In this document: positions 9,421 through 26,566 of the stretch, piece after piece
Position numbering within the stretch: position 1 is the first letter of the stretch
How the letters are laid out: every line of letters begins with the position of its first letter
From: an uncultured Candidatus Saccharibacteria bacterium
GTDB taxonomy: Bacteria; Patescibacteriota; Minisyncoccia; UBA6257
Length of the DNA stretch: 64,000 nt
Assembly (NCBI GenBank): GCA_964479005.1
Contig: CAYZJA010000002.1
Coordinates: forward strand, 64,001-128,000
Direction of reading: 5' to 3'
Translations under genes and position numbers: made by a program
Notes under the pieces: model-generated
The model's database searches: none
Told to the model about the DNA's origin: nothing
What the model saw: only the letters and a program-made list of their open reading frames with translations

Positions 9421-9471
9421 ACTAAAAGATATATTTTGTTTACCCCGTTAGAAGTATTGTTTCTGACGGGG

Positions 9472-9499
9472 TTGACATTCAAACTAATCTTGATAGAAT
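9472..9499 (+). promoter_or_regulatory. sigma70-like promoter GGGG-TTGACA-N16-TAGAAT
   Basis: 'acggggTTGACAttcaaactaatcttgaTAGAAT'; lies upstream of the LysM/M23 gene. Confidence 0.45.
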
Positions 9500-9606
9500 T
9501 ATTGATAAGGCCTTTAAGAAGGCTTTTTTAATAACATTTATTCTAAATTACCATTTTTACCTGGAAAGCACAACTTAATAAAGGTATAAAAAGCGCCAAT
9601 TATTTA

Positions 9607-10686
9607 ATGTCCTTATCTTTATTAAAGATAGCAATTGGTTTGTTTTTGATTTCTTTGTTTTTCGGCAATTCTTATCTTTCTTCCCAAATTATGTTTCTTC
9701 AAAAAGAGGGGGAAGAGTTTTTAATAAAAGAAGACGGTTGCCCCATAATTTTAGAAGGCAGTTCATTTGCTAAGACGGCTTATGCCTACAGTGAATGCTT
9801 AAGTGCGGACGGAAGTCAAATTATTGAGGGCGATTTTGAAACGTATGACCCAGCCCAACAGAATTTTTTGATTATTATAAACAGCGATAGTTTTTTGGGA
9901 ATTAATTCCCCTGTTAAATTTTTATTGCCTTCATCTCAGCGCCATACAGTTTTTTCCTATGTAGTGCAGGAAGGAGATACGCCGGGTAGAATTGCGGCAA
10001 ATTTTGGAGTAAGTTTAAATACTATTTTATGGGCTAATGATTTAAAATCCAGCTCTATAATTAAACCCAATCAGGAACTCATTATTCTTCCAATTTCAGG
10101 AGTAATGCATACAGTCAAAAAAGGAGACACATTACTTTCTATAGCCAAAAAATACAGGGCATCATCTGATGAAATATTTGTTTTTAATGATTTAAAAGAT
10201 GAAGGTTCTATAAAAATCGGCCAAGAACTTATCATTCCAAGTGGTCGGCTTTCTTCAGCCACTTCTCTATCATTATCTGCTGGGCTTAAACCTATGATAA
10301 TTGATATTAGTCATTGGCCAGAGATTGATGGCTTTTTTGCTTATCCTACTTCCTTCGGCTTGAATAGAGGGATTTTCCACTATTATAATGCCGTTGATAT
10401 TGTGAGTTCTTGTGGAAGTCCTATTTATGCTGCTGCTGATGGAATGGTAGTTGAAGCTAAAGGAACAGGAAGATATAATTACGGTTATGGTAATTTAGTT
10501 AAGATTCAACATTATAACGGCACTACGACTGTTTATGGCCATCTAAGCGGATTATCTGTAAAAGAAGGAGATAAGGTTTATCAAGGAGATCTAATAGGAA
10601 AGATGGGTGACACAGGCAATGCTGAATGTTGTCATCTTCATTTTGAAGTCAGAGGAGCCCAGAATCCTTTTGTAAAAAGACGATAG
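9607..10686 (+). CDS. LysM-domain peptidase M23 (cell-wall endopeptidase)
   Basis: Two LysM motifs ('YVVQEGDTPGRIAANFGVS', 'HTVKKGDTLLSIAKKY') plus M23 motifs 'YGHLS' and 'GDTGNAECCHLHFEV'. Confidence 0.8.
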   Translation: MSLSLLKIAIGLFLISLFFGNSYLSSQIMFLQKEGEEFLIKEDGCPIILEGSSFAKTAYAYSECLSADGSQIIEGDFETYDPAQQNFLIIINSDSFLGINSPVKFLLPSSQRHTVFSYVVQEGDTPGRIAANFGVSLNTILWANDLKSSSIIKPNQELIILPISGVMHTVKKGDTLLSIAKKYRASSDEIFVFNDLKDEGSIKIGQELIIPSGRLSSATSLSLSAGLKPMIIDISHWPEIDGFFAYPTSFGLNRGIFHYYNAVDIVSSCGSPIYAAADGMVVEAKGTGRYNYGYGNLVKIQHYNGTTTVYGHLSGLSVKEGDKVYQGDLIGKMGDTGNAECCHLHFEVRGAQNPFVKRR

Positions 10687-22534: not shown

Positions 22535-23701
22535 ATGCCCAAAGTAAAATGTAGAGTTTGCAAAAAGATATTCTATATCAAATCCAATTGGCTTAAAAGA
22601 GGATGGGGAAAATATTGTTCGAGGAAATGTCAGTACAAATCCCAATTGAAAGGAAAATTTGTGGTTTGCGCCTATTGCGGTAGAAGGGTATATCGATCAC
22701 TTGCTGAATTGCGCAGAAAATCTAAGGCAGGAGTTTATTTTTGTAATTTATCCTGTCATTGCGCTTGGAAAAATAAACAAAGGAAAAGTAAGGGAAGATT
22801 TAAATTACAAAATTTATGGGGACCGTGGTGTAATAGTAGCACTAGGACCTGTGGCGTCCTCGGTACGGATGCAAATTCCGTCGGTCCCCCATTTTTCTTT
22901 CTAAAATTCTTAAAGCCCAAGAAGAAAAAAAATAATCTTTTATTTCTTAAGCGGCCACCAAAGAAAATTCTTTATCATTTTTATTGGAAAAAGAATTATA
23001 CCCAAACAGAGATAGCTAAAATTTTTAATGCCACCCACACTAGCGTGAAAAGATGGTTTAATTATTATAAAATCATGGTGAAGTACCGAACTCTATCTTG
23101 TGGCCATAATCCCAATATTTTAAGAAATTTAAAATTAGGTCGTACAGATAAAGCTATTAGAAAATCGGCAGAAGCAAGAAGAATTTATTCAAAAGAAAAA
23201 CTTATTGAAAAAATAAAAGAATTTGTACAAAAAGAAGAAAGAATTCCTACAAAGAACGAATTTATTAATAATTCCTCTTATCCAGATTATGTCACTTACA
23301 GGCATTATTTTGGCACTTGGAATAATGCCATCAAGACAGCGGGCTACAAGCCAAATGAACAATGGTTTGCCTCAGGACATTTATTTGCTAAAGATGGGCA
23401 CAAATGTAATTCAATTTCAGAAATAATCATTGACGATTGGTTTTTTGAAAATGATATTTCTCATACGAGAGAGTGTTTATACCCAGAAGGACGATATCGC
23501 TGTGATTTTATGGTTGGCAATACTTTTATTGAATTTTTTGGTTTATTTAATGCTTCCATTGTTAACCCAAGTTATATTGAAATCGTTAAAAGAAAAAAAG
23601 AAATATGTAAGAAATTTAATATTGTCCTCATTGAACTCTATGAGAAGGATCTTTATAAATTAGATCAATCCTTGGGAGCAAAGATTGGATTAAAAGTATA
23701 A
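22535..23701 (+). CDS. composite ORF: 2x zinc-ribbon N-terminus, HTH, 'YRHYFGTWNNAIKTAG' motif and a DUF559/Vsr-like PD-(D/E)xK endonuclease-like C-terminus; contains a tRNA-His-like sequence in-frame
   Basis: N-terminal 'CRVCKK..YCSRKC' and 'CAYCGR..CNLSCHC'. HTH 'YTQTEIAKIFNATHTSVKRW'. C-terminal 'SEIII..RYRCDFMV..IEFFG..KKFNIVLIEL' resembles DUF559. A 388-codon open frame is unusual in AT-rich DNA, but codons 95-119 coincide with a GC-rich tRNA-like cloverleaf, so the true start or boundaries are uncertain. Confidence 0.4.
   Translation: MPKVKCRVCKKIFYIKSNWLKRGWGKYCSRKCQYKSQLKGKFVVCAYCGRRVYRSLAELRRKSKAGVYFCNLSCHCAWKNKQRKSKGRFKLQNLWGPWCNSSTRTCGVLGTDANSVGPPFFFLKFLKPKKKKNNLLFLKRPPKKILYHFYWKKNYTQTEIAKIFNATHTSVKRWFNYYKIMVKYRTLSCGHNPNILRNLKLGRTDKAIRKSAEARRIYSKEKLIEKIKEFVQKEERIPTKNEFINNSSYPDYVTYRHYFGTWNNAIKTAGYKPNEQWFASGHLFAKDGHKCNSISEIIIDDWFFENDISHTRECLYPEGRYRCDFMVGNTFIEFFGLFNASIVNPSYIEIVKRKKEICKKFNIVLIELYEKDLYKLDQSLGAKIGLKV
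22818..22889 (+). tRNA. tRNA-His(GTG)-like cloverleaf with non-canonical D- and T-loops
   Basis: G-1:C73 and acceptor GGGACCG/CGGTCCC. Anticodon stem AGGAC/GTCCT with loop CTGTGGC. T-stem ACGGA/TCCGT with loop TGCAAAT (no TTC). D-loop AATAGTA (no GG). Confidence 0.5.
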
Positions 23702-23791
23702 AAGGCGATAGAGGATTGACCCGCACACCATAACGAATACTAAGTGCCTTTGGCGCTAAGATACGAAGTATGTGCTCGTTTGGTATCAGGG

Positions 23792-23819
23792 TTGACAAAT
23801 TATTTTTCTTTGTTATAAT
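23792..23819 (+). promoter_or_regulatory. consensus promoter TTGACA-N16-TATAAT
   Basis: 'cagggTTGACAaattatttttctttgtTATAATggg'. Confidence 0.55.
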
Positions 23820-23822
23820 GGG

Positions 23823-23888
23823 AATGCTATCGTTTAGAGATATTAAATAGCTTGCTATCTAATTTCAAAAAGCGATAGCATTTTTTTT
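23823..23888 (+). ncRNA. ~60-nt structured transcript (long hairpin with inner stem) ending in T8; sRNA or transcription attenuator candidate
   Basis: 'aatgctatcg...agata..tatct...cgatagcat' followed by tttttttt; begins ~5 nt after the -10 of the consensus promoter. Confidence 0.45.
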
Positions 23889-23957
23889 ACCGCAAAAATA
23901 TGAAGAGTAATCCTTCACATTTTTTAAATTCATAATATTTGGTATAATATAAATATT

Positions 23958-24266
23958 ATGAAAATAGATTGGAACAAAAAAATCGGAATGCAGGAAGAAA
24001 ATTACGGTTTAACGGTATTTGTTGGAGGGTTAATGCAAATAGTTTTTGGATTTAGTTTTGGTTTAATTCCTTTAGCCATTTTTATTATTACAGTAATCGC
24101 TTTTGTTTTAAGTTTGAAACATGACAGATACGAACCTTTTAGAAGAAGAATGAGTTTTATCGGTTTAGGCATTGTGATTACAATGGTTTTACTTTATTTT
24201 GTTTTTGGCTGGGTAGGAATTATTGGGACATTAGTAATGCCAAAATATGTTTCAATGTTAAGGTAA
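23958..24266 (+). CDS. small membrane protein (3 TM)
   Basis: Hydrophobic segments; a terminator hairpin follows at 24280-24310. Confidence 0.45.
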   Translation: MKIDWNKKIGMQEENYGLTVFVGGLMQIVFGFSFGLIPLAIFIITVIAFVLSLKHDRYEPFRRRMSFIGLGIVITMVLLYFVFGWVGIIGTLVMPKYVSMLR

Positions 24267-26538: not shown

Positions 26539-26566
26539 TTGACAAATCACAAAAATGTAGTATAAT
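26539..26566 (+). promoter_or_regulatory. consensus promoter TTGACA-N16-TATAAT
   Basis: 'gacTTGACAaatcacaaaaatgtagTATAATtta'. Confidence 0.5.

Follow-up and report, generated by a model that had tools for sequence, protein, structure and literature searches.

What is the role of a consensus promoter that reads directly into a long hairpin and a run of Ts? The question is raised by a locus in a 64,000-nt stretch of contig CAYZJA010000002.1 (assembly GCA_964479005.1, positions 64,001 to 128,000; hereafter the window), which has a G+C content of 33% and matches contigs of uncultured Candidatus Saccharibacteria. The promoter, P2, and the hairpin with its T-run, T1, together defined here as the module, lie on the plus strand between a tRNA-His transcription unit and the gene for a small membrane protein. 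An initial annotation of this DNA proposed either a stand-alone small RNA (sRNA) or a leader, attenuator or riboswitch controlling the membrane protein. After comparison with related loci we favour another reading, to which we assign a probability of about 0.55: P2-T1 would be a native module, in which T1 acts as terminator and insulator for the tRNA-His unit and P2 makes a dispensable short RNA.

Loci for the comparison were gathered through exact look-ups with the membrane protein and homologous proteins, a genome scan and a metagenome scan, and nine distinguishable lineages were compared. Eight are close, with 4-15% nucleotide divergence of the membrane gene where measured; the ninth, the distant lineage of loci L010 and L011, shares 51% amino-acid identity of the membrane protein and has a different upstream context. 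Both flanks are syntenic, one comprising nusA, tig and the genes for tRNA-Ala, tRNA-Pro and tRNA-Arg, the other the membrane gene and a gene for a DUF11/CLIPPER surface protein. Homology among the relatives is interrupted from about 22500 to about 23895, so that all of the variation is confined between the promoter of the tRNA-His unit (P1, 22460-22488) and the membrane gene.

Promoter P2 and its conservation

P2 occupies positions 23792-23819 and consists of a -35 element TTGACA (23792-23797), a 16-nt spacer ending in TGT, which provides the TG of an extended -10, and a -10 element TATAAT (23814-23819). The match to the consensus hexamers is 12 out of 12, in agreement with the initial annotation; the further claim that P2 is the best sigma70-like match in the window holds as best or tied for best, because a second 12/12 site, without the TG, is present at 26539. 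Perfect TTGACA-N15-18-TATAAT arrangements number these two on both strands of the 64 kb, against 0.15 expected from dinucleotide shuffles. A conserved small operon follows the site at 26539 and a tRNA follows P1, so consensus promoters are evidently in use in this organism.

The P2 hexamers appear to be kept beyond neutral expectation. They are intact (12/12) in the window, L012 and L022, representing three of the four lineages with the module, and the two changes in the L012 copy fall within the spacer. Between the window and L022, one of the 28 positions of P2 differs (3.6%), as against 31% of the third codon positions of the adjacent membrane gene; by our own estimate, the binomial probability of so few differences at that rate is about 4e-4. 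In the same pair, the neighbouring open reading frame (ORF) shows a synonymous divergence (dS) of 0.19-0.31, and both T1 and a second terminator-like element, T2, which adjoin P2, are heavily diverged. In the fourth lineage, that of L008, P2 is degenerate (TTAATA-18-TATAAT), the -35 being decayed and the T-rich spacer being kept.

These observations bear on the possibility that P2 is inactive, either as the relic of a lost gene or as a chance match in an AT-rich trailer, and that T1 does no more than end the tRNA-His unit. Such a view, which we regard as distinctly unlikely, could draw on the abundance of promoter-like sites in this 33% G+C genome (56 in 8 kb, versus 36 in shuffles), on the L008 type, in which the spacer outlived the -35 so that conservation is not strictly hexamer-specific, and on the fact that a 3.6% difference in P2 is compatible with the 8% divergence of the neighbouring endonuclease gene if both were co-inherited. 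However, the expectation of 0.15 per window refers to the 12/12 match with its spacing and TG at any position, and a chance occurrence within 5 nt of one given terminator would be far rarer; moreover, P2 has stayed at 12/12 in three lineages while T1 and T2 diverged.

Structure and covariation of hairpin T1

T1 extends over 23821-23888 and is a two-tier hairpin followed by eight Ts. The fold over 23821-23884 has a free energy (dG) of -22.4 kcal/mol with a z score of -5.1, none of 200 shuffled sequences being as stable. The lower stem is formed by AAUGCUAUCGUUU and AAAGCGAUAGCAUU (23823-23835 and 23868-23881); the inner stem AGAUA/UAUCU, a weak middle section and the apical stem AUAG-CUUG-CUAU complete the structure, and the T8 run (23881-23888) stands directly behind the stem. 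The long hairpin with its inner AGATA/TATCT stem and eight Ts, as described beforehand, was thus confirmed. The 5' arm starts 2-7 nt past the -10 element of P2, at about +1. The minimum-free-energy and centroid folds agree on one hairpin, and folding from plausible start points reproduces it, with dG of -19.1 and -18.0 kcal/mol. A simple terminator scan missed T1 owing to its loop limit of 8 nt, and a custom scan for hairpins followed by T-runs recovered it (dG -18.9, T8). Among the approximately 70 hairpin-plus-T-run sites of the window, T1 alone sits behind a 12/12 promoter.

Homologous hairpins followed by T7 were found in L012, L022 and L008, giving four versions of T1 that were aligned structurally by hand; the pair table was also made by hand and used in place of the MAFFT alignment, which misplaced the apical stem and the L008 5' arm. 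In the lower stem, pair 6 reads U-A, U-A, U-G and C-G across the four versions, and pair 7 reads A-U, G-U, G-C and G-C. Two pairs of the apical stem, one A-U and one U-A, are each replaced by G-C around an unchanged CUUG loop, and T7-T8 is kept in all four versions. The G-U intermediates and the one-sided T-run argue for a strand-specific function of T1 at the RNA level. Conservation and covariation of the hairpin in relatives, which had been put forward as a check, were therefore found, with compensatory stem pairs among the four of nine lineages that have the module. The window, L012 and L022 share the same apex, AGCUUGCU, and the interior is unconserved, with a 16-nt indel between the window and L022.

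The versions differ in strength. The window and L001 stand for one lineage. L012 and L015 have an intact P2 and a T1 in which one A-to-G change produces a G-U pair, followed by T7 (dG of the L012 hairpin, -23.6 kcal/mol). In L022, also with an intact P2, T1 is shortened to 44 nt and folds at -27.0 kcal/mol (z -6.0). L008, L023, L024 and L035 combine the decayed -35 with a weak 7-bp hairpin (-9.1 kcal/mol, z -1.8, T7) lacking the apical stem; in these insertion-free loci the homologous hairpin and T7 are located 48 nt behind a free tRNA-His.

Several other identities of T1 were considered and rejected. Its 7-bp 'acceptor-like' stem raised the idea of a tRNA relic, for which neither ARAGORN nor the tRNA covariance model made a call, and resemblances to PreQ1 and SRP elements found no support. 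A bidirectional terminator was discarded because the stem is not followed by a T-run on the minus strand and the genes on either side are both plus-strand genes. T1 is not representative of a genome-wide class of promoters reading into terminators: the custom scan gave a single loose case at 9472-9523 and two spurious ones, both within a minus-strand ORF. The loose case belongs to a layout at 9443-9523 made of a stem-loop (9444-9472), TTGACA-16-TAGAAT (11/12), 10 nt and a weak 5-bp hairpin with T6, about 80 nt upstream of a 359-aa ORF at 9607; this one may be a genuine leader.

Position of T1 behind the tRNA-His unit

The location of T1 among the transcription units points to a role in termination. 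P1, with the sequence TTGAAA-17-TATAAT, is the promoter of the tRNA-His transcription unit on the plus strand; it is conserved in all relatives, where it lies 13 nt 5' of a free tRNA-His. In the window it is followed by a 388-aa ORF with a tRNA-His nested inside. The custom scan detected no other hairpin-plus-T-run on the plus strand between 19269 and 23825, so that T1 is the first plus-strand terminator after P1, the 388-aa ORF and the nested tRNA-His, a point missed by the initial annotation. With its stem and U-tract, its place at the end of a same-strand unit and a structure kept over sequence, T1 fits an intrinsic terminator.

Behind T1, between it and the membrane gene, is T2 (23894-23925, plus strand), a small A5-hairpin-T6 element (AAAAAUAUGAAG...CUUCACAUUUUUU) with dG of -5.9 and z of -2.8. 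A compensated version is present in L012 (-10.5, z -5.3), and remnants are retained in L007 and L034, both without T1. Tandem terminators of this kind would fit a position behind a strongly transcribed tRNA.

According to the reading that we favour, transcription initiated at P1 would run through the endonuclease ORF and the nested tRNA-His and undergo Rho-independent termination at T1, by means of the hairpin and U8, with the weaker T2 as backup. T1 would thereby insulate the membrane gene, itself transcribed near-leaderless from its own promoter, P3. P2 is probably active, its sole product being an RNA of about 58-65 nt that consists of the T1 hairpin and the U-tail. This RNA would be dispensable, a by-product or at most an accessory, and would not act as a cis-regulator of the membrane gene. 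P2-T1 would represent the native flank at which the endonuclease cassette and other insertions stop. Promoter activity of P2, termination at T1 and the lack of an essential RNA function are what we infer from the sequence comparisons.

The membrane gene and its own promoter

The 102-aa membrane protein gene (23958-24266, plus strand) is preceded by P3, an extended -10 promoter with the sequence TGGTATAAT at 23940-23948. Its TATAAT (23943-23948) is the second TATAAT that had been noticed ahead of the gene, and it stands 9 nt ahead of the ATG at 23958. P3 is the same in L003-L009 and L012-L035 regardless of the upstream sequence, including relatives free of the hairpin and L009; TGGTATAATATAAATAT(T/C)ATG is invariant in all close relatives, with one additional substitution between the -10 and the ATG in L034. 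P3 and the membrane gene are unchanged in eight of the eight close lineages, module or no module. Since only 9 nt separate the -10 from the ATG, the mRNA is predicted to be near-leaderless, and translation of the gene probably takes place on an mRNA with little or no leader. The gene has no Shine-Dalgarno sequence. A 10-nt tandem duplication of the P3 promoter was observed in L005.

The proposal of a leader, attenuator or riboswitch implies that the membrane gene is transcribed from P2 and that conditional read-through of T1 sets its expression. The module lies on the same strand, 70 nt upstream of the gene, and regulation through promoter-proximal terminators is a known design (PMC7815308, PMC7547250). 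The proposal is nevertheless very unlikely and was not upheld, as P3 is invariant in the close relatives, including the five lineages without P2-T1 and the relocated L009; the 5' arm of T1 begins at about +1, leaving no upstream room for an aptamer, an antiterminator or a competing structure; the interior of T1 is unconserved; and T2 intervenes before the gene. Rfam searches of the 64 kb at the gathering threshold, and of 2 kb and 261 nt at permissive settings, gave only tRNAs and sub-threshold noise, with no match below E = 0.5 inside the module. As for a leader peptide, a leaderless mini-ORF within T1 reads MLSFRDIK and a stop in the window and L012, MLSF and a stop in L022, and is missing from L008; it was dismissed as unconserved. 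On these grounds the membrane gene appears neither to be regulated by the P2-T1 module nor to depend on it. For similar loci, a layout of promoter, hairpin and gene should be checked in relatives before it is called a riboswitch.

Presence and absence of the module

Four of the nine lineages have the module, with intact hexamers in three, and the other five lack it by different deletions. In the L003 type the tRNA-His abuts P3; in the L004 and L007 types other cassettes are present; L021 and L034 have different deletions, some of which retain T2; in L009 the membrane gene is in a different genomic context; and no module was found within 300 nt upstream of the membrane gene in L010 and L011. 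In a neighbour-joining tree of the membrane gene (300 nt), module carriers and non-carriers are interleaved. The simplest history would be an ancestral module followed by at least three losses.

This distribution bears on the proposal of a stand-alone sRNA, in which P2-T1 exists for the production of an abundant hairpin RNA, CUUG-capped and about 60 nt long, that has a 5'-triphosphate and a U-tail and acts in trans, either on a protein, as its ligand or decoy, or through antisense pairing of kissing loops, and termination is secondary. The part of the proposal that stood is the anatomy: the promoter and the hairpin are conserved, P2 above neutral sites and the hairpin with compensatory changes and an apex identical in three versions. 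A consensus promoter and a terminator of its own make up the module, with nothing between them and no conserved ORF, and the hairpin exceeds the length that a terminator needs. The proposal as a whole is unproven and we consider it doubtful, though less so than an inactive P2, because the module is lost in five of the nine related lineages, the L008 copy has a degenerate -35 and a weak 7-bp hairpin without an apical stem, and the interior of the hairpin varies by the 16-nt indel. No further copy of T1 or P2 was found in the window, the 35 loci or viral contigs, by which an identity as a repeat or mobile element was also rejected, and the module belongs to no Rfam family. No conserved target emerged; the sole complementarity found, 10 of 11 positions between the 3' interior of T1 and the start of the membrane gene, has a chance probability estimated at about 0.14 and is absent in L022, and was discarded as an antisense target. 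To our knowledge, no conserved sRNA candidate has been described before in Saccharibacteria, which would be relevant if the short RNA is functional; our literature search on small RNAs and transcriptomes of this group surfaced no obvious sRNA catalogue. If P2-T1 were a selected sRNA gene, it would be one located straight behind tRNA-His that survives repeated remodelling of its locus by a homing-endonuclease cassette and other insertions, with the insertions all stopping at its -35.

Several observations weigh against a terminator/insulator with a dispensable RNA. The L003, L004 and L007 types, which are free of the homing-endonuclease gene, do without T1, indicating that a terminator or insulator is inessential at this position. 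The compact terminators elsewhere in the window are smaller and simpler than T1, which has two tiers and 44-62 nt, and the T1 apex AGCUUGCU is conserved. The conservation of P2 argues that initiation there matters, unlike what is expected for a useless by-product. That conservation itself could be overestimated, since co-conversion with the neighbouring mobile gene may have inflated the similarity of P2; this gene is 8% diverged overall between the window and L022, and the contrast is weaker if P2 was inherited with it. The comparative set is also small, comprising four distinct module sequences from a single clade.

Insertions at the locus

The stretch from the tRNA-His to the membrane gene is a hot spot for insertions, with cassettes at 4146-4977 of L004, 4273-4962 of L007 and 1724-2822 of L012, and also in L025. 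These cassettes are unrelated, have their own small terminator straight behind the tRNA, and end in ...GGACCC. The cassette ends adjoin a conserved minus-strand ORF of 28-34 aa with the motif MFRT(L/I)DW..IKEEIEPF. Repeats of CCC-TGCCAATTTAA at the left junction in L012 and the right junction in L007 have an att-like look.

A 76-nt insert, bounded by a direct repeat of TTGAC, was identified at 23721-23796 by comparison with L022, which is insert-free at the same place (GGAGC/TTGACAAATT). This lineage-specific insert landed in the -35 of P2, and its second TTGAC copy regenerates the -35. Its G+C content is about 50%, and its predicted fold is a branched hairpin (-25.3 kcal/mol, z -2.8). Neither the window nor any locus has a second copy, and it has no Rfam match; possibly it is a miniature mobile element.

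All of the variable insertions, namely the endonuclease cassette, the L012 cassette and the 76-nt insert, end 0-15 nt upstream of the -35 of P2. The recombination hot spot at the tRNA-His locus thus has a fixed right-hand border, marked by the module. This border suggests yet another reading, in which the palindrome acts as DNA, as a recombination or insertion-site feature of the hot spot. We consider this extremely improbable: the insertions abut P2 and not the palindrome, compensatory changes with G-U intermediates make sense only in RNA, a T-run conserved on one side only points to a strand-specific RNA function, and no integrase or recombinase is encoded nearby. Nor does T1 belong to the endonuclease cassette, a candidate rejected because the module occurs without the ORF in L008 and L012 while L021 and L034 show the reverse; the Parcubacteria copies of the endonuclease gene have unrelated terminators behind them.

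The 388-aa ORF and its nested tRNA-His

The 388-aa ORF (22535-23701, plus strand) is probably a homing-endonuclease gene that invaded the tRNA-His locus, carrying its own tRNA-His inside the frame and replacing the resident tRNA. Evidence from Pfam (PF18780), an AlphaFold2 (AF2) model, Foldseek and homologues gives the domain order Zn-ribbon, disordered linker, helix-turn-helix (HTH), HNH_repeat and a C-terminal Vsr/EDxHD-like nuclease. In the AF2 model the Zn-ribbon, HTH, HNH_repeat and C-terminal alpha/beta domains are confident, the last with a predicted local distance difference test (pLDDT) score of about 80-94, and the linker at residues 89-137, within which lies the peptide encoded by the tRNA, is disordered. 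For the C-terminal domain, the best Foldseek match in PDB is 3r3p, the catalytic domain of I-Bth0305I (target template modelling score 0.71, root mean square deviation 2.7 A, 91 columns, probability 1.0, E 0.017), and the next is Vsr (1cw0). The C-terminal domain has no sequence-level match in PDB or Pfam, and the putative endonuclease assignment is a fold match at a Foldseek E of 0.017, not a sequence match.

ARAGORN identified the tRNA-His(GTG), with G-1 and C73, in frame within the linker at 22818-22890 on the plus strand (Rfam tRNA model, 53.6 bits). Between the window and L022 the tRNA shows no differences at 73 positions, and the ratio of nonsynonymous to synonymous substitution rates (dN/dS) is 0.23 and 0.18 for the two halves of the ORF, indicating a real gene with both halves under purifying selection. 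About 40 full-length homologues of the protein (52-87% identity) occur in bacteria of the Candidate Phyla Radiation (CPR), of which about 34 encode the tRNA-derived peptide WGSWCNSS...CG....DANS..PP. The ORF with a nested tRNA-His is located at 1691-2857 in L022, 3001-4233 in L027 and 3001-4245 in L030; ARAGORN likewise detected the nested tRNA in the Parcubacteria loci L027, L029 and L030. Homologues without the tRNA segment (L032 and L033) have a tRNA-His immediately upstream instead.

Among the lineages, the window, L022, L034 and, in degraded form, L021 carry the ORF, and others lack it, including the sister L012 (4% diverged), which has an ordinary tRNA-His and a different cassette. The nested tRNA-His alleles are alike across phyla (59/73 and 54/73 identical positions, 74-81%), while identity with the free tRNA-His of sister Saccharibacteria is only 47/75 (about 63%). 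As the nested alleles are closer to those of Parcubacteria than to those of the sisters, the tRNA-His appears to have been inherited with the endonuclease gene and not with the host. The presence/absence polymorphism of the ORF at a fixed site and the tRNA-His allele travelling along with it are both observed.

Three very different tRNA-His genes were found at one locus in closely related Saccharibacteria (22818-22890 of the window, 4902-4976 of L003 and 4747-4820 of L008; compare 3309-3380 of L027). The T-loop of the nested tRNA-His is TGCAAAT (22866-22872 of the window; also in L022, L027 and L030), in which G replaces the nearly universal U55, and the D-loop contains only one G; for a presumably essential tRNA, this is an unusual configuration of the tertiary pairs. 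At 2890-2960 of L030 is a decayed remnant of a tRNA-His, with the D arm and the GTG anticodon arm and without the T arm, about 100 nt 5' of the endonuclease ORF, whose nested tRNA-His is intact; this remnant is consistent with insertion into, or repeated invasion of, a tRNA-His gene. The window has 19 tRNA genes. The nested tRNA-His was not listed by the whole-window Rfam scan at the gathering threshold and was found by ARAGORN and by a local Rfam scan. It could be overlooked likewise by annotation pipelines.

Related arrangements are known: SegB is a free-standing homing endonuclease in the tRNA gene cluster of T4 (PMC2330249), I-Bth0305I is an EDxHD/Vsr-like homing endonuclease (PMC3239194), and tRNA genes nested in ORFs are known as tRNASec in selB (PMC8124441) and tRNAPro in mutS (PMC11353228). 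The 388-aa ORF shares with these an endonuclease that is tied to a tRNA locus and passed on along with its tRNA allele, a Vsr-like fold and a tRNA in a coding frame. It differs in that the tRNA-His lies in frame within the endonuclease gene itself and replaces the resident tRNA-His; our literature searches found no report of such an arrangement. An endonuclease gene with an in-frame tRNA-His recurs across CPR phyla, is more striking than P2-T1 and deserves a study of its own.

Comparison with known systems

Taken alone, the P2-T1 element matters little, being an unannotated terminator and a possible tiny RNA gene of an uncultivated CPR bacterium. Its anatomy suggests that Saccharibacteria make use of consensus sigma-70 promoters and canonical intrinsic terminators.

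Like the Rho-independent and tandem terminators behind stable-RNA genes, T1 has a stable stem with a U-tract directly behind it, 3' of a tRNA unit; compensatory substitutions keep the stem as the sequence drifts, and a weaker second terminator, T2, follows. Unlike ordinary terminators, T1 has a consensus promoter directly in front, making a complete transcription unit. Single-hairpin antisense RNAs are represented by RNA-OUT of IS10 and by the Sok and CopA types. P2-T1 resembles them in its length of about 60-70 nt, long imperfect hairpin, exposed loop, own promoter and U-tail, but no gene or transcript lies opposite it on the other strand, it lacks a conserved target, and it is a member of none of these groups; in the 261-nt Rfam scan, CopA scored 16 bits against the module, the gathering score being 60.

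The closest parallels in layout are strong promoters that read into a nearby intrinsic terminator. In lambda and Stx phages, the constitutive promoter PR' is terminated nearby at tR', giving the short 6S RNA or StxS (PMC7547250); the greA leader RNA GraL is a promoter-proximal terminated RNA (PMC6829880); and 3' ends within 5' untranslated regions have been mapped in E. coli (PMC7815308). In systems of the PR'-tR' and GraL type, the default product is a short, stable, terminator-containing RNA that can moonlight as an sRNA, the RNA carries extra sequence such as a qut site or a leader, and read-through is required for the genes downstream. P2-T1 shares the arrangement of promoter and terminator with these systems and differs from them in that it shows no sign of an antiterminator, its transcript is the terminator only, and the downstream gene has a promoter of its own.

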